DNA from: Candidatus Methylacidiphilales bacterium
GTDB lineage: Bacteria > Verrucomicrobiota > Verrucomicrobiia > Methylacidiphilales > JAAUTS01
Assembly: GCA_028713655.1 (NCBI GenBank)
Contig: JAQTNW010000015.1
Span: 2,360-66,359, forward strand
Reading direction: 5' to 3'
DNA length: 64,000 nucleotides
The notes under the pieces are model-generated. The model searched no databases and was not told the origin of the DNA. It saw nothing but the letters and a program-made list of their open reading frames with translations. Shown in pieces: positions 4,680 to 48,637 of the stretch. Numbering within the stretch: position 1 is the first letter of the stretch; every line of letters begins with the position of its first letter. A program made the position numbers and the translations under genes.

Positions 4680-5120
4680 CTATTTGGTGTGTTTGAGCAA
4701 GGGATTGCGCCACCTGAGGCCGGGAAAGCGGGCAAAATCTCCATCTGCGGAATAGAGTTCACAGCCATGTTCAATGGCCAAAGCGGCTAAGGCGGCATCG
4801 GCAATCAAATTCCCGGTGGCTTGAGTTTCGATTAGGAGACTTGTAAAAATCTGCCGATGAGCCGAAGTGGGTTGAAGCAATTGAACACAGGGTTGGGCCA
4901 GCCACGAGTCGATGATTTTCAGCGCATCAGCAAGCGACAAGTAGGCGGGTGACAAGCGGGGGTTGGTTGTAATGCGCAGGAAGGCGTGCAAGGTGGGCCA
5001 GGAAAGTGCCAGGGGAGAAATGCCACTCAACTGCAGGTCCCACCAAGTGCGGGATTTTTCATGATAGGGCGACTGCGAATCCACTGCATAAATCAGCAGG
5101 TTGGCATCGACGAGAATCAC
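4680..5120 (-). CDS. vapC: PIN-domain toxin, VapC family
   Basis: 146 aa. Starts MILVDANLLIYA (PIN acidic residue context), with a downstream D..A.AL.HG..L.S.D motif. 4-nt overlap with the upstream small gene. Confidence 0.8.
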   Translation of the reverse strand: MILVDANLLIYAVDSQSPYHEKSRTWWDLQLSGISPLALSWPTLHAFLRITTNPRLSPAYLSLADALKIIDSWLAQPCVQLLQPTSAHRQIFTSLLIETQATGNLIADAALAALAIEHGCELYSADGDFARFPGLRWRNPLLKHTK

Positions 5121-5356
5121 TTGTAGTCATCTCCTTCGGCGGCAGCGATCCAGTCAGCGACGCTATGGCCCTGGAGTTTGAATCCAAAAGCATGTGACTT
5201 TGTTTTATACGGTTTGGCTTGGATGGGTTGGGCCAGTTTTTCCAGGCCGATGCGGAGGGCTTCATTGACCACCGTTTTGGTGGGCTTTTTCAGCTTGGCG
5301 GTGCAGTTGGACAACTTGGCCGCCACGTCGGGCTCCAACGTCAAGGTGGTTCTCAT
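5117..5356 (-). CDS. VapB-type antitoxin (small DNA-binding partner of the PIN toxin)
   Basis: 79 aa. Begins MRTTLTLEPDVAAKL, typical of small antitoxins. Its stop overlaps the vapC start. Confidence 0.65.
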   Translation of the reverse strand: MRTTLTLEPDVAAKLSNCTAKLKKPTKTVVNEALRIGLEKLAQPIQAKPYKTKSHAFGFKLQGHSVADWIAAAEGDDYK

Positions 5357-5756: not shown

Positions 5757-8555
5757 TTAAAGCAGCGTTTTGACTTTTGCCAGCGCTGCAGAAATGTTTT
5801 CCGGCTGGGTGCCGCCGCCCTGGGCCAGGTCCGGTTTGCCGCCGCCCTTGCCGCCGACCAGCGGAGCGATTTCCTTGATGATGTTGCCCGCCTGGATTTT
5901 TGAAACCAGATCGGGCGAAACCGAGGCGATGAGCCCCACGCGCCCGCCGCTGTGGAAGGCCAGCACGGCCACGCCTTTCCAGGATTTTTTCAACTCGCCG
6001 ACAGCCAGCGGCAAAATCGCGGCGTCGGCTTCGCCGATGTCATGGGTGAGCAGGGAAATCCCGTTGATGGTTTCAGCCTTTGCAATCCATGCGGGAACCT
6101 CGGAAGAAAGCCGGCGTTGCAATCCCGCCTGCTTGTCCTTGGCCTGTTCCTTCTCGAACTCGCGAATTTCGGATTTGAGATTTTCGACGGCCGACTGGTT
6201 GTTAAGAAAATTTTTCCAGGATTCGATTGGATCTGAAGCCAAGCCAGCGAGTTTCAGGGTTTTGCCGGATTTTTGCAGAAGCGCGGCGAGTTCTTCGCTT
6301 TGTTTTGCAAAGGCAGGCTCCAGATAGTTGTGAATCGCCCCACCGGAAACAGCCTCGATGCGTCTCACGCCCGCGGCAATGGCGCCTTCGGACACAATGC
6401 GGAACGGGCCTATTTCGGCGGTATTGCGCACATGTGTGCCGCCGCAGAGTTCCATGGAATAACCGTCGAGTTTACCGGGTGTGCCGCCGATTTGCACCAC
6501 GCGCACAACTTCCCCGTATTTGTCGCCGAAGAATTGCATGATATCGTTGCGGCCCTTGATGTCGGCGTGCTTCACCTCGGTCCAGGAAACGGGTGCGTTT
6601 TCAAGGATGCGTTGGTTGACCAGTTCCTCGACCTTGCGGGTTTGTTCGGGCGTGAGCGCCGCGCTGTTGAAGTCGAAGGTGAGTTTTTCCCCGCTGACGA
6701 AGGAACCCTTTTGGGAAATGTCGCGGCTGACCACTTCGTGCAGCGCCCAGTGCAGCAGGTGCGTGACGCTGTGGTGCGATTGGATGGCCGCGCGGCGATT
6801 TTTATCAACAGTTAGTGTGACATTTAAGTCGCTACCCATGGGAAGAACCAGATTAGTTTCATCTTCAGAAGGATGATGTAAATAGATGCCAGCACCGACT
6901 TTTGTTGTGTTGGCAATTTTAACTATTTTCTGTGTGCCATCAGATTTAATGAAAGTTGCTGTGCCAGAATCACCAACTTGGCCGCCCATTTCGGCGTAAA
7001 ATGGGGTTTTTTTGAAAATAAAAAAACCATCACCTCCGCGAATTTTTCCAAGTTCTGTTTTAACCTCTAATATATCGTAGCCTACAAATTCAGTTGCACG
7101 CTCGTCCGCAAAATCAGCAACTGTGGAGATGATTGTTTTTTTTCGGGCTGCACGTGCGCGGTTGCGTTGCTGTTCCATTAAGTGATCGAAACCACATGCG
7201 TCAACTGTCACGCCACACTCACGGGCTTTAAGTTGAGTAAGATCTAAGGGGAATCCATAGGTATCGTGTAGCTTAAAGGCTAATTGTCCTGGAATTGGCC
7301 TTTCGTCTTTTCTGCTAATGGAAATAGCTTCGTTCAAAATAGACATGCCGCTTTCGAGATTTTTCAAAAATGCATGCTCTTCTGTTTCAATAATTTCAGC
7401 AATCCGATCTTGTTTAGCTGCTAGATTCGGGAAAGCGTTGCGGAACGCGCTAACTACAGTTGGGACTAGACGGTGTAAGATTGTTGTCGATCCTGCTTGT
7501 TCATAAACAAAAGCCATTGCTCGTCTAAGAATTTTTCGGATGACATAATTACGCTCGTCATTTCCTGGTAAAATGTCGTCAGATATAGCAAAAGTAAGTG
7601 TTCTAATGTGGTCTGCAATTACTCTATAAAAAACGTCAATCCTTTCTTGTTTCGTGTCACCAGTGGACCCGGCTCTGGGCAGGGTATTGCCGTATGTCCT
7701 GCCGGAGATCTTTTCCAATTCGCGGAAGATGGGTTCAAACACATCGGTCTCGTAATTGGAGATGCGGGCGTTTTTGAAGTCAGAAAAGTTTTTTGTGCCT
7801 TGGATGATGGAGCAAACACGCTCGAAACCCATGCCGGTATCGACATGTCGGGCGGGTAAAGGCGAGAACGTGCCGTCCGGGTTTGCGTTGAATTGGATGA
7901 AGACCAGGTTCCAAATTTCGATGCAACGCGCGTCGCCGGAGTTGACGAGGGAACCTTTGGTATCGCCGTCCGGTGTGAGATCGACATGCAGTTCCGAGCA
8001 GGGACCGCAGGGGCCGGTGTCGCCCATCATCCAGAAATTGTCTTTTTTGTTTCCGTTGACGATGTGGACCTTGGGATCGAGTCCCGCCTTCTTGAACAAC
8101 GCAGCCCAGATATCGTGCGCTTCCTGGTCGAATTCAGAGGGATCGCCCTTGGATTTATCCGGACTATAAACCGTTGCGTAGAGGCGGTTGGCTGGAAATT
8201 TCCAGCGTTCCACGACCAGTTCCCAAGCCCATTCGATGGCCTCCTTTTTGAAGTAATCGCCAAAGCTCCAGTTGCCGAGCATTTCAAAAAAGGTGTGGTG
8301 ATAAGTGTCGAGGCCGACGTCCTCGAGGTCGTTGTGTTTGCCTCCGGCGCGGATGCACTTCTGGGTGTCGGCGGCGCGGGCGGGTTTGTAGGGACAGGCT
8401 TTTTCAGCCAGAAAGATGGGCACGAACTGGTTCATGCCGGCGTTGGTGAAGAGCAAGTTGGGCGAGTCCGGCATCAGGCTGGATGACGGGACGATCGTGT
8501 GCTGCTTTTCCTTGAAAAAATCAAGAAAGCTTTGCCGGATTTCAGCGGAGGTCAT
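5757..8555 (-). CDS. alaS: Alanyl-tRNA synthetase
   Basis: 932 aa. Class II core (FTNAGMNQF, GGKHNDLE), editing-domain HSVTHLLHWAL and C-terminal DHHA1-like GGGKPDLAQGGG. Confidence 0.95.
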   Translation of the reverse strand: MTSAEIRQSFLDFFKEKQHTIVPSSSLMPDSPNLLFTNAGMNQFVPIFLAEKACPYKPARAADTQKCIRAGGKHNDLEDVGLDTYHHTFFEMLGNWSFGDYFKKEAIEWAWELVVERWKFPANRLYATVYSPDKSKGDPSEFDQEAHDIWAALFKKAGLDPKVHIVNGNKKDNFWMMGDTGPCGPCSELHVDLTPDGDTKGSLVNSGDARCIEIWNLVFIQFNANPDGTFSPLPARHVDTGMGFERVCSIIQGTKNFSDFKNARISNYETDVFEPIFRELEKISGRTYGNTLPRAGSTGDTKQERIDVFYRVIADHIRTLTFAISDDILPGNDERNYVIRKILRRAMAFVYEQAGSTTILHRLVPTVVSAFRNAFPNLAAKQDRIAEIIETEEHAFLKNLESGMSILNEAISISRKDERPIPGQLAFKLHDTYGFPLDLTQLKARECGVTVDACGFDHLMEQQRNRARAARKKTIISTVADFADERATEFVGYDILEVKTELGKIRGGDGFFIFKKTPFYAEMGGQVGDSGTATFIKSDGTQKIVKIANTTKVGAGIYLHHPSEDETNLVLPMGSDLNVTLTVDKNRRAAIQSHHSVTHLLHWALHEVVSRDISQKGSFVSGEKLTFDFNSAALTPEQTRKVEELVNQRILENAPVSWTEVKHADIKGRNDIMQFFGDKYGEVVRVVQIGGTPGKLDGYSMELCGGTHVRNTAEIGPFRIVSEGAIAAGVRRIEAVSGGAIHNYLEPAFAKQSEELAALLQKSGKTLKLAGLASDPIESWKNFLNNQSAVENLKSEIREFEKEQAKDKQAGLQRRLSSEVPAWIAKAETINGISLLTHDIGEADAAILPLAVGELKKSWKGVAVLAFHSGGRVGLIASVSPDLVSKIQAGNIIKEIAPLVGGKGGGKPDLAQGGGTQPENISAALAKVKTLL

Positions 8556-8623
8556 AAGGGAAAAACGGTAGGGAATCTGGGCGGGATGACAATCTCTGAA
8601 ACAGCGCGTAGAAGCAGATTTTT

Positions 8624-8651
8624 ACCGCAGAGGCGCAGAGAACGCAGAGGA
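8624..8651. repeat. Arm 1 of a perfect 28-nt inverted repeat (ACCGCAGAGGCGCAGAGAACGCAGAGGA); partner 8812-8839
   Basis: The exact reverse complement was verified base by base. The arms are 160 nt apart in the alaS/bufC intergenic region. Confidence 0.95.
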
Positions 8652-8811
8652 GAAGAAAAAAATCAAAATACATTCCTGGGGTTAAAACAAAACAAGTCAG
8701 TCTGTATATTAAGAAGATTCAGCAGATTTTTAGAACCCAAATATTTTGTTCAACTTTTGCTCCCTTTTGCTGCAAATCCTTTGTTCGTGATTTTCGTGGG
8801 GAAAACAGTTT

Positions 8812-8839
8812 TCCTCTGCGTTCTCTGCGCCTCTGCGGT
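8812..8839. repeat. Arm 2 of the perfect 28-nt inverted repeat; 8813-8842 also matches 30571-30600 at 28/30
   Basis: tcctctgcgttctctgcgcctctgcggt. Confidence 0.95.
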
Positions 8840-8853
8840 GAATAGCTGCTTGG

Positions 8854-9804
8854 TTATGGGGCTTGGCAAAACCAGCCAAGGGCGGACCAGTTCTGGAACC
8901 ATTCCTTGATTTTGCTTTGCCAATCGACTTGCGGGGAAGCGCCGCGCAACGCGCGCCTGCAGGCGGTTTCGAGGCTGGCGCCTTTGCGCAGGGAGTTGAG
9001 CAGGACAAAAGCTTCCGGTTCCAGGCGTTTGTAATACAGCGCATTTTCATGGCGATGAACAGCGACAAAGATTTTCTCCCGCTTGGGCAGCGGCACGTTG
9101 TTGAGCTTGGCTGCTTTCGGCGCCGAATCCATCGCGTTGCTGGCTTCACCACGCAAGGCTTCATGTTTTTTGACCGCGAGCACAAAGTTGTCGATGGGAT
9201 AATCAAGCGCCAGAAAGGTGATATAGGGCTGCAGACTGAGCTGAGCTTTGGCCGGATCGAGATCGAGCAGTTCGTCGGTGCCGAGAGGCGGCCTGGCTTC
9301 GCCGTCGAAGGCGACGACCTGCGCCCACTCGAAGCGCGCAATGTCCAGGGCCAAAGCCAGTTTCTTCCCGGCCCATTTCGGCTGTTCACGCAGGAATTTT
9401 TCCAGCCGCGAGCCGAGATTGCGAAGCGTGAACGATGCGGACGGATATTTTTTTAGATATGCCTCGGCGAGCCGCATAAAAGAACGCTCGCCCAGCGCCG
9501 CGCGCAAGCCGGGGTAGTCCTCGTAAAAACAATCCAGAATGCGGAACCAGTATTGGCGGTTGTAAATTTCAAGGCGGTCGAAGGAGCTGAGCCGGTCGTT
9601 GGGTTTGACAAATCCGGCGACGACGTCGGCCGTTTTTCGCCCGTCCATCCAGCGCGTTTGCATCCTGCTGTTCGCCGTCAGCGGACGGAACAACGCCGTC
9701 GCCATGAGCCGCTGGAACTTCAGCAACTGGGCGCGCGACTTGATCTCAGGCCGCGACGGGCGACGTGTGGTTTTTGAGGAATTGCGTGGCTTTGAGCGCT
9801 TCAT
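8854..9804 (-). CDS. bufC: DUF2063-family partner protein of the MNIO enzyme (BufC/HvfC-like)
   Basis: The ORF-track frame is 8854..9909. I prefer ATG 9804 (MKRSKPRN...) because the longer form overlaps DUF692 by 164 nt. LLKFQRLMATALFRPL... resembles the DUF2063 N-terminus. Sits immediately downstream of DUF692. Confidence 0.7.
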   Translation of the reverse strand: MKRSKPRNSSKTTRRPSRPEIKSRAQLLKFQRLMATALFRPLTANSRMQTRWMDGRKTADVVAGFVKPNDRLSSFDRLEIYNRQYWFRILDCFYEDYPGLRAALGERSFMRLAEAYLKKYPSASFTLRNLGSRLEKFLREQPKWAGKKLALALDIARFEWAQVVAFDGEARPPLGTDELLDLDPAKAQLSLQPYITFLALDYPIDNFVLAVKKHEALRGEASNAMDSAPKAAKLNNVPLPKREKIFVAVHRHENALYYKRLEPEAFVLLNSLRKGASLETACRRALRGASPQVDWQSKIKEWFQNWSALGWFCQAP

Positions 9805-10597
9805 GATGGACTTCTTCAAAGGATGGAATGCGGTCGTCCCATTCGAGCAGCGTGGCGGTGTGGCCGCAGAGTTGGATGGCGTGGGCGTAGAGTTTCCAGA
9901 CCGGATCAAGCACCGGATGATCGTGCGTATCCAGAATGTATTTCTCGAATTTCGAGTGGCCCGCGATGTGGATCTGGCCCACGCGATGATGCGGGACGTT
10001 GTTCAAATAATCGTAGGGGTTGAAGTTATGATTTTTGGACGAGACATAGATGTTGTTGACGTCGAGGAGAATGCCGCAGTCGGCGAGTTCACTGACCTCG
10101 GTCAAAAATTCCCATTCGGTCATTTCCGAGGCGTGAAATTCGGCATAGCTGCTGACATTCTCGACGCAAACGGGCACTTCCACAAAATCGCGGACCTGGC
10201 GGATTTTTTGCGCCGTATGTTTCGCGACGGCGTGTGTGTAAGGCATGGGAAGCAGGTCGTGCGTATAGCGTCCATCCACGCTGCCCCAGCAAAGGTGATC
10301 GGAAAGCCAGGGTGTTTTGGTGCGCTGGACCAGGGTCTTGAGTTTTTTGAGGTGCTCGCGGTTTAACTTTTCGGCGGAACCGAAATACATGGAAACGCCG
10401 TGCTGGACGACGCGGTATTGTTCCAAAATCTGGTCGAGCACTTCCAAGGGGCGGCCTCCGTCGCACATGAAGTTTTCGGAAATGATCTCGAACCAATCGA
10501 CCACCGGTTTTTTTTCGAGGATATGCCGGTAGTGCGGTACGCGCAGGCCGATCCCGATACCGTAGTCGGTAAAGTTGTTGAACGGATTCGCGGGCAT
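9746..10597 (-). CDS. bufB: DUF692 / multinuclear non-heme iron oxidase (MNIO, MbnB-like) RiPP-modifying enzyme
   Basis: 283 aa. GIGLRVPHYRHIL...VDWFEIISENFM...HGVSMYFGS...LSDHLCW...LLPMPYT...VENVSSY...LLDVNNIYVS..NH...IHIAGH...LDTHDH...TLLEWDD matches the UPF0276/DUF692 TIM-barrel signature along its full length. Confidence 0.88.
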   Translation of the reverse strand: MPANPFNNFTDYGIGIGLRVPHYRHILEKKPVVDWFEIISENFMCDGGRPLEVLDQILEQYRVVQHGVSMYFGSAEKLNREHLKKLKTLVQRTKTPWLSDHLCWGSVDGRYTHDLLPMPYTHAVAKHTAQKIRQVRDFVEVPVCVENVSSYAEFHASEMTEWEFLTEVSELADCGILLDVNNIYVSSKNHNFNPYDYLNNVPHHRVGQIHIAGHSKFEKYILDTHDHPVLDPVWKLYAHAIQLCGHTATLLEWDDRIPSFEEVHHEALKATQFLKNHTSPVAA

Positions 10598-10620
10598 AAG
10601 AAGTGAAGGGCTCGACAGTG

Positions 10621-10658
10621 AAGAGAGAGCCGGAGCATGGAAGCCCCGGCTCTCTCTT
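10621..10658 (-). promoter_or_regulatory. Intercistronic stem-loop between the precursor gene and the MNIO gene (possible attenuator or mRNA 3-prime stabiliser)
   Basis: Perfect 13-bp stem, AAGAGAGAGCCGG (10621-10633) pairing with CCGGCTCTCTCTT (10646-10658), and a 12-nt loop. It lies 18 nt after the precursor stop and 23 nt before the DUF692 ATG. No U-tract follows on the coding (minus) strand. Confidence 0.45.
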
Positions 10659-10676
10659 TATTGGGTGTCTTTTAAA

Positions 10677-10961
10677 TTATCCCTTGCTGCCGTCGGTGGC
10701 GCAGCCGCCTTTGCCTTTGCAGGAATTTTTGCCCTTGCAGCCGTTGTCGCCGGATTTGCATCCGCCCTGGCCTTTGCAGGTGTTTGCGCCCTTGCAGCCG
10801 TGCTTGCCTTTGTCGGAATCATCAGCCATTACGCCGGCTGTCATGTTGGAGCCGGAGCTGGTGTTGGTTTGAGCGGCATGCAGGCGGGCCGTGGTTCCGC
10901 CGAGCAAACCTGCAATGGCGGCGCCGGCGAGGAGGACTTTCGCGGTATTCTGGGTCTTCAT
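10677..10961 (-). CDS. bufA: Secreted Cys-rich RiPP precursor (bufferin-like, 6-Cys type)
   Basis: 94 aa. Sec-type signal MKTQNTAKVLLAGAAIAGLLGGTTARLHA. C-terminal core HGCKGANTCKGQGGCKSGDNGCKGKNSCKGKGGCATDG has two 3-Cys half-repeats, 6 Cys in total. Located directly upstream of DUF692/DUF2063. Confidence 0.75.
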   Translation of the reverse strand: MKTQNTAKVLLAGAAIAGLLGGTTARLHAAQTNTSSGSNMTAGVMADDSDKGKHGCKGANTCKGQGGCKSGDNGCKGKNSCKGKGGCATDGSKG

Positions 10962-10997
10962 GTGTTATTTATCCTTCTGTTTGGTTGTTGTGTTGTT

Positions 10998-11510
10998 TTA
11001 TTTTGACTGCGGGTCCGTGGTTGTTGAATTACAGGGCCCACAGGCAAAAAATTTCTTTAAAAGGCCGTCCACGGAGATTGGGCCGGGGCCAAAGAGGAAA
11101 ATGATGACGACGGTAAGCAGGAAGAGAAACGGTGTTGCGGCGGTGAATTTGTCCGGATCGCTGAAAATACTGCGCAGCGCCTCGTTTTCAGCGGTCAGGT
11201 AGGCGATGAGCATGGTGAAAATGAGGGGCAGGGTGGCGAGGCGCGAAGCGAAGCCGAGCAGGAGGAACAAACCGCAAAAACATTCCGCTGAGCCGGCGAG
11301 GTAAGCATTGAGCGTGGGCCACGGAATGCCGAGGTTGTGGAAAAAGCCCGCGACTTTGTCGATATCGCCGAGCTTGCCTTTGCCGGCCATGAAAAATTGC
11401 CAACCCCAGTAGAGACGGATGACGAGAAGGAAGATTGGCTGCAGGCTTGAGGCGGCGCAAATGAGGCGGCGGTAGCTATTGGTTGTGAGGTTGAGCAGGG
11501 ACTTGTTCAT
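10998..11510 (-). CDS. DoxX-family membrane protein
   Basis: 170 aa, four hydrophobic helices. LVIRLYWGWQFFMAGKGKL...AGSAECFCGLFLLLGF pattern of DoxX. First gene of the MNIO operon. Confidence 0.85.
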   Translation of the reverse strand: MNKSLLNLTTNSYRRLICAASSLQPIFLLVIRLYWGWQFFMAGKGKLGDIDKVAGFFHNLGIPWPTLNAYLAGSAECFCGLFLLLGFASRLATLPLIFTMLIAYLTAENEALRSIFSDPDKFTAATPFLFLLTVVIIFLFGPGPISVDGLLKKFFACGPCNSTTTDPQSK

Positions 11511-11729
11511 ATTCTGTTTTCTTGGGTGGTTTCGATAGATCAGAATGATTAGGCCGCCTTTTTATTCCATTAGAATTACAAATTAACTGCAAAAGAGGGG
11601 CTCACAAGCCGGGGCGGCTGTTTGTAACAGGATTGTTACCTGGGAATTAAAGCAGGTTCTTACAGGAAGATCGCGAAGGGGGAAGGTGAAGTTTAACTGC
11701 AGATAACACAAATTTACGCAGATGTTGAG

Positions 11730-12050
11730 ATGCCATGGACGCTAAAGGGTAGTCCGGCCCAGTGCATTGGAACACGCATTGCCAAGGTGGCCGGAAAACC
11801 TGATTTTGCCCATGTCTCAACCAGCTTTACGAGCGTCAGAATTTGACCATGCGCATGTCCATGCAGCGGTTCACACGTCTGACAAAAGCTTTTTCAAAGA
11901 GGGTTGAGAATTTGGAACATGCGGTTGCTGTCCATTCATGCGCTACAACTTTGCTGGATTCACCAGGTCTTGTGCGTTACCCCGGCGATGGAAGCTGGCA
12001 CTGCGGATCACGTTTGGAGCTTGAAGGAAATTATTGCTCTGTTAGATTGA
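11730..12050 (+). pseudogene. Degenerate C-terminal fragment of an IS1-like transposase, with at least two frameshifts
   Basis: Three frames stitched by hand: ...GKPDFAHVSTSF / ERQNLTMRMSMQRFTRLTKAFSKRVENLEHAVAVH / YNFA..HQVLCVTPAMEAGTADHVWSLKEIIALLD*. This is the conserved tail of IS1-type DDE transposases. No N-terminal part or inverted repeats were found. Confidence 0.5.
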
Positions 12051-12057
12051 TATGTGA

Positions 12058-12483
12058 ATGACAACCGCCAAAGAAACCGTAAAATCGCTGAAGACTACGG
12101 TACGAAATGCGAAGATGTGGTTTCTCCGCTCTACTGAGGCTAAATCACGATCCGATTTCCGCACAGCTAAAAAATTGGGTGATAATGGATCGGGGGCGGT
12201 ATATGTCTTTTTTTCTAAAGACAAGGCTCTCAAGGCTCTCAAGGCTCTATATGTAGGCCAATCCCGCAGACATTTCAAAAGAAGGCTGTATGACCAAACC
12301 TCACCGCATAAGAAGAAAAAGTGGTGGAGAAAATGGGATGAAGTGCGCTTTATGCAGGTCCAGCATCAAACGGATAGAATTGTATTGGAGTTGCTGCTAA
12401 TCTTGGCCTTACAACCAGAATTTAATTTGAACCCCGCAAAAAGGATGGTGAATAAAATGTTCGGAATCGAAGATTCAAGCTGA
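12058..12483 (+). CDS. Small GIY-YIG-like nuclease-domain protein (hypothetical)
   Basis: 141 aa. GAVYVFF...ALYVGQS...RRL...LELLLILALQPEFN fits GIY / YIG / R / E / N spacing. Low-GC islet. Contains a 9-bp x3 tandem repeat. Confidence 0.45.
   Translation: MTTAKETVKSLKTTVRNAKMWFLRSTEAKSRSDFRTAKKLGDNGSGAVYVFFSKDKALKALKALYVGQSRRHFKRRLYDQTSPHKKKKWWRKWDEVRFMQVQHQTDRIVLELLLILALQPEFNLNPAKRMVNKMFGIEDSS
12223..12249 (+). repeat. Perfect-to-near-perfect 9-bp tandem repeat x3 (aaggctctc aaggctctc aaggctcta), coding KALKALKAL
   Basis: Read directly from the sequence, inside ORF 12058..12483. Confidence 0.9.
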
Positions 12484-12889: not shown

Positions 12890-13636
12890 TTACAAAAGCT
12901 TGCGCAGGTCGCTGACGTCGCCTGCGTGGAGCATGACGAAGGTGCTCTTGGCATCCGACCAGGTGGCGAAGGAAATTCCGTCCGACTGTTCAAAAACAGG
13001 TTTGCCGATGGGAGGCGGATCTTTCAGGCGGTTGCGGTCGATGACAAAATAGTGAACCACCTGGCCTCCCTCCAATCGGGTGCAAACGAGGGAAACTTTG
13101 TTTCCGTGGATGGAATAAACCTGGCAGCCCAGTCTGGACTTGCCTGCGAGACCGGGCGGAAATTCAAAGTCGTGGGGAGCATTCCGGACGGCCAGCCATT
13201 GGTTGAGTTTTCCGGAGTCCTCATTTGAGACGGCCACGGTAATCCGATCTTCGTTCGTCATGCGGACGATTTCACCCGTCAGGGAAGCCAGGGTCATGAG
13301 CTGGGATTTTTGCGGCAGCATCAAGCTGGCGGCGCCGAGCAAAGCCACGATGCAGGCGGCCAGCGCGAGCATTCCCGGTCTTGAAAGATGAAAGCGGGAA
13401 CGCCGGACGCGGATCGGTTTTGCCGCGAGAATGGATCCTTTTAAATGCGCCGGGGGCTGGACGCTTTGCAGGGCCTGGCGCATTTGGGTGTCGAGGGCCT
13501 GTTGCGCTGAAAACCAGCGGCCGAGTTCGGGGTCGATGCGCGCCTGTTCCAGAGCCTTGGCAAAATCAGGCTCCGCCATTTCCGCTCCACTGGGGCGGTA
13601 AGCGCTTAAAATGGCTTTGGCGTGTTCGCTATTCAT
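12890..13636 (-). CDS. Anti-sigma factor (single-pass membrane protein) paired with the upstream ECF sigma
   Basis: 248 aa. Short cytoplasmic N-terminus, one TM (MLALAACIVALLGAASLML) and a periplasmic C-domain. Starts 5 nt after the sigma stop. Confidence 0.7.
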   Translation of the reverse strand: MNSEHAKAILSAYRPSGAEMAEPDFAKALEQARIDPELGRWFSAQQALDTQMRQALQSVQPPAHLKGSILAAKPIRVRRSRFHLSRPGMLALAACIVALLGAASLMLPQKSQLMTLASLTGEIVRMTNEDRITVAVSNEDSGKLNQWLAVRNAPHDFEFPPGLAGKSRLGCQVYSIHGNKVSLVCTRLEGGQVVHYFVIDRNRLKDPPPIGKPVFEQSDGISFATWSDAKSTFVMLHAGDVSDLRKLL

Positions 13637-13640
13637 GATC

Positions 13641-14177
13641 CTATTTACTCTGATTGTGTGAGGAGTCTGGATCGGGTTTTATTCCACCGGTAGTCGCCTC
13701 TAATTTTTTCCGCAGCAGATCCTTGGCCCGGGAGAGCCGGGACATGGTTGTGCCGATGGGAATATCGAGGATTTCGGCGATTTCCTTGTACGAACATTGG
13801 TCCAGATAAAAGAGCGTAAGAATGGAACGGTGCGATTCATTCAAGGACTGCAACGCAGCCAGCAGCTCGGTGTGCTCAAATTCCCGTTCCGCCCTGGATT
13901 CGGTCGCTGTCTCCGGGATTTCCTCCAGTGTGTCCTCGCTGCTGACCATACGCTTGCCGCGTTCATGCTGGCGGAGGAAATCGCGGTAAAGCGTGGTGAA
14001 CAGCCAGCTTTTGATTTTTTCTTTTTCGCGGACCTGATGGCCTTTTTCGGCGTAGATGGCGAAGCATTGCTGGGTGAGGTCGCAGGCGTCGTCGGGGTTT
14101 TTGGCCAGGCTGTAGGCAAAGCGGTAGAGATCCCCGTAATAGAGGTTCACGATTGCTTCAAAGTCCGGGTTATCCAT
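13641..14177 (-). CDS. ECF-type RNA polymerase sigma-70 family factor
   Basis: 178 aa. Region 2 (DLYRFAYSLAKNPDDACDLTQQCF, SWLFTTLYRDFL) and region 4 (YKEIAEILDIPIGTTMSRLSRAK). Confidence 0.9.
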   Translation of the reverse strand: MDNPDFEAIVNLYYGDLYRFAYSLAKNPDDACDLTQQCFAIYAEKGHQVREKEKIKSWLFTTLYRDFLRQHERGKRMVSSEDTLEEIPETATESRAEREFEHTELLAALQSLNESHRSILTLFYLDQCSYKEIAEILDIPIGTTMSRLSRAKDLLRKKLEATTGGIKPDPDSSHNQSK

Positions 14178-30514: not shown

Positions 30515-30691
30515 AAATACATTTTTAACCGGATTGGCGCAGATAAAAAGTCAGGCCGTTTGCCTGGAAACCTCAGCGTTCTCGGCGCCTCTGCGGTGAA
30601 TTTTCAACAATAGCCTGCATATGCCCAGTACGTATCTTTCCGCTGTTACGTCCCGATGCTAACAGGTTGACCATTGAAATGAGTATGAAAT

Positions 30692-48044: not shown

Positions 48045-48637
48045 AGTGTAGTCTCCAGCGTTTGAGCCCGCACGGAATAACCAGCCACTTTAGGATGTTC
48101 CGAGGCCAGCCAAACCTTATTCTCGCTTTCCAAAATGACGCTGCCTGTCGGGGTTACCAAAATTTCAAAGCAACTATGTGTTTTTCCCAACATTAAACAG
48201 ACGCGATGTCCGCTGTAGCTCAAAACGCGGATTGTATCGCTACCTCGTTTAAAAACAATTAACACCGGCTGGTTTGAGCCAATCACAGGAGACTGGGCAA
48301 TCGAAAGGTCAACTTTCCCGTTTTCCGTCACCACGGCATTGACTTGGCCGGGAAAGAGTTTCTCCACCTGCAGAAGGATTTGTTGGTCGCTGGCCAGGTT
48401 TTCCGAGATAGGATGGTGTTTGAAAAAGAGAAAAGGGAGAAGGCCAACGGCTAAAACCAGCGCAAAAGCGCCACACAAGCGGCCAATAACTCCTTTCCAT
48501 GCAGAATCATCCTGTTGCATGGAACTGTCTTGCTGGAAGGCAATGACTGCCCGGTGCCGCGCGCGGGCGCGGACCGATTCCGATACTTCCGGCACCTTTA
48601 ATTTCTGAAGATGCCGCCGGAGATCATCATCTTTCAT
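48041..48637 (-). CDS. Anti-sigma factor (single TM)
   Basis: Trimmed to ATG 48637 (MKDDDLRRHLQKL...), which forms an ATGA overlap with the sigma stop. TM CGAFALVLAVGLLPFLFF. Periplasmic C-domain. Confidence 0.65.
   Translation of the reverse strand: MKDDDLRRHLQKLKVPEVSESVRARARHRAVIAFQQDSSMQQDDSAWKGVIGRLCGAFALVLAVGLLPFLFFKHHPISENLASDQQILLQVEKLFPGQVNAVVTENGKVDLSIAQSPVIGSNQPVLIVFKRGSDTIRVLSYSGHRVCLMLGKTHSCFEILVTPTGSVILESENKVWLASEHPKVAGYSVRAQTLETTL

Follow-up and report, generated by a model that had tools for sequence, protein, structure and literature searches.

The window analyzed here, a stretch of 64,000 nucleotides from contig JAQTNW010000015.1 of a Candidatus Methylacidiphilales bacterium, originates from a landfill metagenome. 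It carries on its minus strand a run of four genes encoding a DoxX-family membrane protein, a small cysteine-rich precursor, a multinuclear non-heme iron oxidase (MNIO) of the DUF692 family, and a DUF2063 partner (Table 1), which probably form a bufferin-type operon for a peptide made on the ribosome and modified after translation (RiPP). The six-frame list of open reading frames (ORFs) returns all four genes where a preliminary description of this DNA had placed them, with DoxX first, and Pfam agrees with the proposed families for three of them. Counted from the ATG, the products comprise 170 (DoxX), 94 (small ORF), 283 (DUF692), and 316 (DUF2063) residues. The same locus is present in a second, independent assembly of 3.4 kb (L081), and its nearest relatives are Verrucomicrobiota metagenome-assembled genomes (MAGs), which fits the Verrucomicrobia-like genome proposed earlier.

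Table 1. Coordinates of the operon, its regulatory elements, and the linked sigma/anti-sigma genes in the window
Feature	Position	Strand	Basis
Candidate extracytoplasmic function (ECF)-type promoter, GGAATAA-N17-TTCTGAT	11539-11568	-	motif conservation upstream of related loci
BufD/HvfX-like membrane protein of the DoxX family, heading the operon	10998-11510	-	Pfam DoxX
Precursor, BufA2-like, Cys-Lys class	10677-10961	-	NCBIfam BufA2 match, homologs, Cys pattern
Predicted signal peptide, precursor residues 1-29	10875-10961	-	inspection
RNA hairpin between precursor and MNIO genes	10621-10658	-	minimum free energy (MFE), conserved position
MNIO (DUF692) enzyme, BufB-type	9746-10597	-	PF05114, NCBIfam MNIO_BufB, ligands
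DUF2063 partner, BufC/PME1 type	8854-9804 (alternative start 9705)	-	PF09836, AlphaFold2 model
ECF sigma factor, probable regulator	13641-14177	-	Sigma70_r2 and r4_2, TIGR02937
Single-pass anti-sigma factor, C-terminal domain predicted periplasmic, two invariant Cys	12890-13636	-	adjoins sigma gene

The four genes and their products

A locus scan limited to one genome per species returned at least 596 loci with relatives of the MNIO, and the comparisons reported here use the best 80 of these (L001-L080). Each of the 80 is a MAG from Verrucomicrobiota or Acidobacteriota, and their MNIOs are 78-88% identical to that of the window. The MNIO gene is present in 80 of the 80 retained loci, with the precursor and partner genes beside it in nearly all. 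The partner, DoxX, and precursor from the same loci share about 40-68% identity with their window counterparts. The high identity of the MNIO across two phyla suggests either a strong constraint on the enzyme or horizontal transfer.

The MNIO matches PF05114 (MbnB_TglH_ChrH; 353 bits, E 1e-105) over nearly its full length. Among the NCBIfam models, it exceeds the curated cut-off of MNIO_BufB (344.9 bits, cut-off 310), and falls under those of HvfB (248 bits, cut-off 360), MbnB (TIGR04159; 39.1 bits, cut-off 325), ApyH, and ChrH. Among solved structures, the diiron DUF692 protein 3BWW comes closest (E 8e-47), and the motifs HG, SDHL, VEN, LDVNN, IHIAG, DTHD, and LEWD line up with both 3BWW and MbnB. 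The ligands of MbnB are His54, His90, Glu133, Asp163, Asn166, His192, Asp208, His210, and Glu239 (PMC9060507). Mapped by motifs and spacing rather than on a structure of the window protein, their equivalents are H66, H101, E146, D179, N182, H210, D223, H225, and E252. All nine positions, which the preliminary description had expected to be kept, are invariant in 81 homolog hits. The residue that follows the catalytic Asp is a Phe in the Lys-Cys (EGKCG) MNIOs and an Asp in those of the Cys-Lys type, such as Asp251 of BufB2 (PMC13097082). The window enzyme reads E252-W253-D254-D255 at this position, with D254 found in 82 of 82 relatives and D255 in 77 of 82, while the Lys-Cys-type 3BWW carries ERDF. 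Since an Asp (D255) follows the catalytic Asp, the MNIO belongs to the Cys-Lys class, in agreement with its substrate.

The precursor contains six Cys, at residues 56, 62, 68, 75, 81, and 87, arranged in the two half-repeats noted earlier, CKGANTCKGQGGC then CKGKNSCKGKGGC, and five of the six are followed by Lys-Gly (C-K-G). Inspection of its N-terminus supports the signal peptide that had been proposed: it is Sec-like, with an n-region containing K2 and K8, a hydrophobic core (residues 9-19, Kyte-Doolittle peak of up to 2.4), and a LHA/A cleavage-like site. This layout is kept in 40 relatives, in which R26 and A29 are invariant. Cleavage would leave a core of 65 residues, including 16 Gly and 10 Lys. 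The six Cys are likewise invariant across the 40 relatives, and exactly six Cys are present in 60 of the 81 precursors taken from the loci. A near-invariant core, H-x-C-K-G-x-N-x-C-K-G-x-G-G-C-K-x-x-D-N-G-C-K-G-K-N-S-C-K-G-K-G-G-C, is shared by the Verrucomicrobiota and Acidobacteriota. With 4,999 homologs at E <= 1e-3 and an arrangement of precursor, MNIO, and DUF2063 genes that recurs in nearly all 80 loci, the small ORF lies far beyond chance. Some relatives possess two precursor genes (L024, at 5794-6027 and 7690-7923, L056, and L068); the pair of L024 flanks a sigma/anti-sigma pair, and in L068, two complete clusters stand back to back and diverge.

The precursor returns no Pfam family at E <= 0.1, DUF2282 included, and its sole family match is the NCBIfam model BufA2 (NF050166, E 7e-10). 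The corresponding class has been defined as BUF_6/12Cys or Buf2 (PMC11626156, PMC12452194), and as the 'Cys-Lys' captophorin group (PMC13097082). A tblastn search of the precursor against plasmids reported zero matches, probably because of the low-complexity filter, and a full-text literature search with the core motif CKGKGGC and its variants returned no paper.

The DUF2063 partner, whose position next to the MNIO had been correctly described, matches PF09836 (49.6 bits, cut-off 27.2, E 4.8e-13) and has 5,664 homologs at E <= 1e-10. Its sole NCBIfam match is the HvfC equivalog, at 38.7 bits and thus under the cut-off of 142, and NCBIfam returns no match with a BufC-specific model. An AlphaFold2 model computed from 41 sequences is confident, with a predicted local distance difference test score (pLDDT) of 81.8 and a predicted template-modeling score (pTM) of 0.75. 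Its best fold matches are NGO1945 (3DEE; TM-score 0.74, normalized to the target) and TglI (8HCI/8HI7), nothing else being significant. NGO1945 is the founding DUF2063/PME1 structure, and TglI is the partner of the MNIO TglH. Both were reached by fold search, the sequence search against Protein Data Bank chains having returned no match. The start of this gene is ambiguous: the ATG at 9804 gives a 59-nt overlap with the MNIO gene, and an alternative ATG at 9705 was picked by one gene caller. The former is favored, as it is the start of the source's own 316-residue gene call (P0121), as residues 23-33 (SRAQLLKFQRL), outside the overlap, are conserved, and as the Pfam domain begins at residue 30 and the first predicted helix covers residues 24-38.

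DoxX is identified by Pfam (E 2.1e-20), and its sole NCBIfam match, HvfX, scores 71.2 bits, under the cut-off of 80. The usual gene order in the related loci is precursor-MNIO-DUF2063-DoxX. Only L010 and L012 share the DoxX-first order, L006 being irregular. The window thus has a rare rearrangement of the usual gene set, in which the bufABC core, reported as strictly conserved in the bufferin literature, keeps its order.

Promoter, intergenic hairpin, and sigma/anti-sigma pair

Of 75 regions upstream of precursor genes, 38 contain the hexamer GGAATA at a distance of up to 300 nt, mostly as part of a bipartite motif, GGAATA(A/T)-N16-CTCynAT, which looks like ECF sites such as those of E. coli sigma-E. 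With a strict regular expression, this motif is recovered from 24 of the 74 regions that precede precursor genes, compared with 0.35 expected from its density over 2.3 Mb of locus sequence. The -35-like GGAATA of the window begins 58 nt upstream of the DoxX ATG, and in L010, which is also DoxX-first, the motif likewise lies upstream of DoxX; hence, DoxX appears to be first in the transcript. This element is a candidate ECF-type promoter. A second strict match in the window, at 48074 (plus strand), lies inside minus-strand ORFs and was taken as chance. Scans for sigma-70 consensus promoters and intrinsic terminators returned nothing over the shuffled background. Eight acidobacterial loci (L044, L046, L048, L051, L055, L058, L062, and L069) have no GGAATAA upstream of their precursor gene and display other ECF-like bipartite motifs, e.g. 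GGAAATCC-N16-CGCACGT and TGTAACCAAT-N14-GAATC, which suggests control of these clusters by a different sigma factor in this phylum.

The MNIO gene starts 80 nt past the stop codon of the precursor gene, and the interval holds a hairpin with a 16-bp stem and a 6-nt loop, without a U-tract. The 101-nt stretch analyzed folds with an MFE of -39 kcal/mol (z = -5.0 compared with shuffles). In 71 of 77 loci, this intergenic region likewise holds an equivalent hairpin, defined by an energy of <= -15 kcal/mol and a run of 8 or more consecutive pairs, and 19 of these loci exhibit a T-rich tail; its sequence is not conserved, but the hairpin itself is recurrent. The simplest reading is that it causes partial termination or stabilizes the 3' end, so that the precursor transcript would exceed the enzyme transcript.

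A sigma/anti-sigma pair lies 1.4 kb upstream of the operon on the same strand. The sigma factor comprises Sigma70_r2 and r4_2 domains and exceeds the cut-off of the TIGR02937 sigma70-ECF model (84.5 bits, cut-off 42.9). The anti-sigma gene is translationally adjacent to it and reports weak matches with DUF3379 and anti-sigmaE models. Homologs of the sigma factor (44-52% identity) are linked to the cluster in 5 of the 80 loci: in L024 and L025, the pair stands directly upstream of the precursor gene; in L053, it closes the operon; and in L050 and L074, its distance to the precursor gene is ~3.7 kb and ~6 kb, respectively. The promoter motif is found directly upstream of the sigma gene in L024, L025, and L050, the usual sign of ECF autoregulation, which is thus supported in these relatives only. 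Control of the operon by the sigma factor is plausible in the window genome. In an alignment of the window anti-sigma factor with its homologs from L024, L025, L050, L053, and L074, two C-terminal Cys, located in a GC(Q/R/K)V and a S(L/M/V)xC stretch, are invariant in all six sequences and may form a site for sensing metal or redox state.

The interval between operon and sigma pair contains the degraded C-terminal part of an IS1-family transposase (~11790-12048, plus strand). This remnant has at least two frameshifts, and its stitched read-through matches PF03400 with E 3.4e-4, just under the cut-off; it suggests a past insertion or rearrangement. It is followed on the same strand by a 141-residue ORF (12058-12483), weakly similar to the GIY-YIG N-terminus of UvrC (TIGR00194, E 1.4e-3) and called also in the independent 3.4-kb assembly. 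The genes flanking the operon are housekeeping or unrelated (alaS on the downstream side and, farther off on the upstream side, genes of the agmatine-deiminase-like and CN-hydrolase types), and therefore the unit is restricted to the four genes and their regulatory elements. A 43-nt inverted repeat (8612-8654 and 8809-8851), 91% complementary and with arms 154 nt apart, takes up the greater part of the interval from the DUF2063 stop codon to the alaS start, and a third related copy of it lies 22 kb away (30570-30594, minus strand; 3 mismatches in 25 nt). It could be an element resembling a miniature inverted-repeat transposable element or a repetitive extragenic palindrome, or a large terminator structure. 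Farther downstream, on the minus strand, a VapBC-like toxin-antitoxin pair (4680-5356) comprises a PIN-domain protein (4680-5120; Pfam PIN, E 8e-12) whose gene overlaps by 4 nt with an upstream ORF of 79 residues (5117-5356).

Proposed function and alternatives

We interpret the window operon, doxX-bufA-bufB-bufC, as a bufferin-2-type (BUF_6/12Cys, 'Cys-Lys captophorin') RiPP operon, with a probability of about 0.85. The experimental basis for the chemistry and function is provided by Caulobacter Buf1 and Buf2 (PMC11626156), and by fontiphorin and oxazolin (PMC13097082). If we assume that the window system behaves likewise, the 94-residue precursor would be made in the cytoplasm and held by the DUF2063 partner for the multinuclear iron oxidase, which with O2 would convert Cys of the C-K-G motifs into 5-thiooxazoles. 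The modified precursor would leave via Sec, its 29-residue signal peptide being cut off, and the Lys/Gly-rich product of ~65 residues would be kept in the periplasm, where its thiooxazoles would chelate excess copper. In Caulobacter Buf2, a disulfide probably joins the outer Cys, and each of the four Cys between them is lighter by 4 Da, for a total of -18 Da (PMC11626156). By analogy, Cys62, Cys68, Cys75, and Cys81 of the window precursor would be modified (-4 Da each) into four thiooxazoles, and Cys56 and Cys87 would be linked by the single disulfide, giving the same total. Transcription would most likely proceed from the ECF-type promoter 58 nt upstream of doxX, under the putative control of the sigma/anti-sigma pair 1.4 kb upstream, and the hairpin after bufA would keep the precursor mRNA above that of the enzyme.

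Several observations weigh against this interpretation. The precursor scores 38.9 bits with the BufA2 model, under the equivalog cut-off of 60, so that the assignment to the 6/12-Cys bufferin class rather than to DUF2282, made in the preliminary description, stands as to the sole family matched and falls short as to the score. All 40 close relatives match BufA2 and remain under its cut-off as well (best E 2e-11); therefore, the verrucomicrobial and acidobacterial clade constitutes a divergent branch, and the low score looks like a limit of the model for this clade rather than a quirk of the window gene. The AlphaFold2 model of the precursor, computed from a 40-sequence alignment, is not confident (pLDDT 48.5, pTM 0.18). 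In Caulobacter, DoxX is dispensable for both modification and copper protection (PMC11626156). A search of sequencing runs returned only DNA metagenomes (landfill, soil) and zero RNA for this organism. As for regulation, a search of the region upstream of the sigma gene in the window itself did not recover the promoter motif, and the IS1-family remnant and a small opposite-strand ORF separate the operon from the sigma gene.

As to the metal, the same thiooxazole peptide could be directed at another thiophilic one (Hg, Cd, Zn, Au, or Ag), or serve in the periplasm as a redox buffer. In mercury-detoxification clusters, MerC is fused to some of the Buf1/Buf2 domains, and the authors of the survey propose that further metals may be involved (PMC12452194). 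A landfill is a plausible setting for mixed metal stress, the core is unusually rich in Lys (10/65), and neither a metal transporter nor a cuproenzyme gene adjoins the operon. Nevertheless, all members tested (Buf1, Buf2, oxazolin, and fontiphorin) are tied to copper (PMC11626156, PMC13097082) and the window gives no hint of another metal, which makes another target unlikely. The chemistry itself might also differ, with the MNIO of this divergent clade performing another oxidation (beta-carbon excision, or oxazolone/thioamide formation) to yield a product other than a thiooxazole peptide. MNIO reactions are varied, and product assignments of close homologs have been disputed; besides, the clade is uncharacterized and its precursor is under the BufA2 cut-off. 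However, the enzyme is over the BufB cut-off with the same catalytic base and ligand set, and the PME1-dependent MNIOs have been unified as 5-thiooxazole formers (PMC13097082); a different reaction is thus very unlikely.

Regarding the family branch, a membership in the HvfABC/oxazolin/fontiphorin (Lys-Cys, EGKCG-repeat) branch instead of Buf2 would account for the strong HvfB match (248 bits), for the HvfB-like nearest structure 3BWW, and for HvfX and HvfC being the sole NCBIfam matches of DoxX and DUF2063. This is hardly credible given that HvfB stays under its cut-off of 360 while BufB is over its own, that the precursor has no EGKCG repeat and places Lys after Cys, not before, and that the specificity residue is Asp, not Phe; the HvfA/oxazolin class was rejected on these grounds. 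The bufferin 1 (DUF2282) class was also rejected, the precursor having no DUF2282 match and six Cys instead of four, as was the methanobactin class, based on the TIGR04159 score (39.1 versus 325) and on a partner that is DUF2063, not MbnC.

Beyond the bufferin-2 assignment, at roughly even odds the verrucomicrobial Buf2-type operons would be the regulon of an ECF sigma factor of their own, reading GGAATA(A/T)-N16-CTCynAT, with the single-pass anti-sigma factor holding it back and the two Cys of the latter as a candidate metal or redox sensor and the post-precursor hairpin setting the precursor:enzyme stoichiometry. The survey reports sigma/anti-sigma (NrsF) genes in Buf1 clusters, not in Buf2 ones (PMC12452194). 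Since these genes were known from Buf1 only, this would be an unreported regulatory module, offering a ready promoter and sensor to ask which signal, copper or other, induces the peptides in uncultured soil bacteria. The linkage, observed in the window and in 5 of the 80 loci, adds in itself a little to the survey picture.

Comparison with known systems

The bufferin/captophorin family has already been surveyed in detail (PMC12452194, PMC13097082). It is the largest MNIO-dependent RiPP family, and one more cluster changes little: the window operon adds one complete member to a known family and is not a new system. What is added here is the rarity of the DoxX-first order, the conserved hairpin, the ECF-type promoter, and the linked sigma pair. 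As the precursors of this clade fall under the BufA2 cut-off and are called 'hypothetical protein' where named, counts of the family in bacteria of soil and landfill are too low. The promoter, the occasional sigma pair, and the hairpin provide testable handles on operon regulation outside Proteobacteria.

Methanobactin MbnABC shares with the window the enzyme superfamily, the iron-ligand set, and Cys-derived copper ligands (proposed for the window), whereas the window has neither MbnC nor the leader-peptide logic, its precursor being Sec-exported. The HvfABC(X) oxazolin system of H. influenzae and the fontiphorin of Fontimonas also combine an MNIO, a PME1 protein, and DoxX with a Sec-exported Cys-rich precursor; their 5-thiooxazole chemistry and copper link are proposed for the window too. 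The H. influenzae product, once described as oxazolone/thioamide, is now assigned as 5-thiooxazole (PMC13097082). These systems differ by the EGKCG repeat with Lys before Cys and by the MNIO Phe, the window enzyme possessing Asp and the HvfB, HvfC, and HvfX cut-offs being unreached.

The bufferin 1 (gig-like) operon bufA1B1C1D1 of Caulobacter and Cupriavidus is closer in composition. It comprises the same four families (precursor, MNIO, DUF2063, and DoxX), with sigma/anti-sigma genes nearby, and its product is a periplasmic copper chelator, as proposed for the window. Its precursor is a DUF2282 protein with four Cys, its DoxX comes last, and its anti-sigma factor is NrsF, the window differing in each respect. 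The preliminary description had stated that the Caulobacter bufferin operons carry a DoxX gene, which is true of buf1; buf2 is devoid of it (PMC11626156).

The latter operon, bufA2B2C2 of Caulobacter vibrioides (CCNA_03001-02999), differs from that of the window, in which DoxX is present and first. The window precursor is also under the NCBI BufA2 cut-off, and the host of bufA2B2C2 is an alphaproteobacterium instead of a member of the Verrucomicrobiota. Further, the window carries a linked sigma pair with a single-pass anti-sigma factor bearing two Cys in its C-terminal domain, not NrsF. As in the window, however, bufA2B2C2 encodes a six-Cys Cys-Lys precursor with a Sec signal, an MNIO, and then a DUF2063 protein, the Asp-Asp motif follows the last iron ligand, and expression appears to be under an ECF sigma factor (SigF in Caulobacter).

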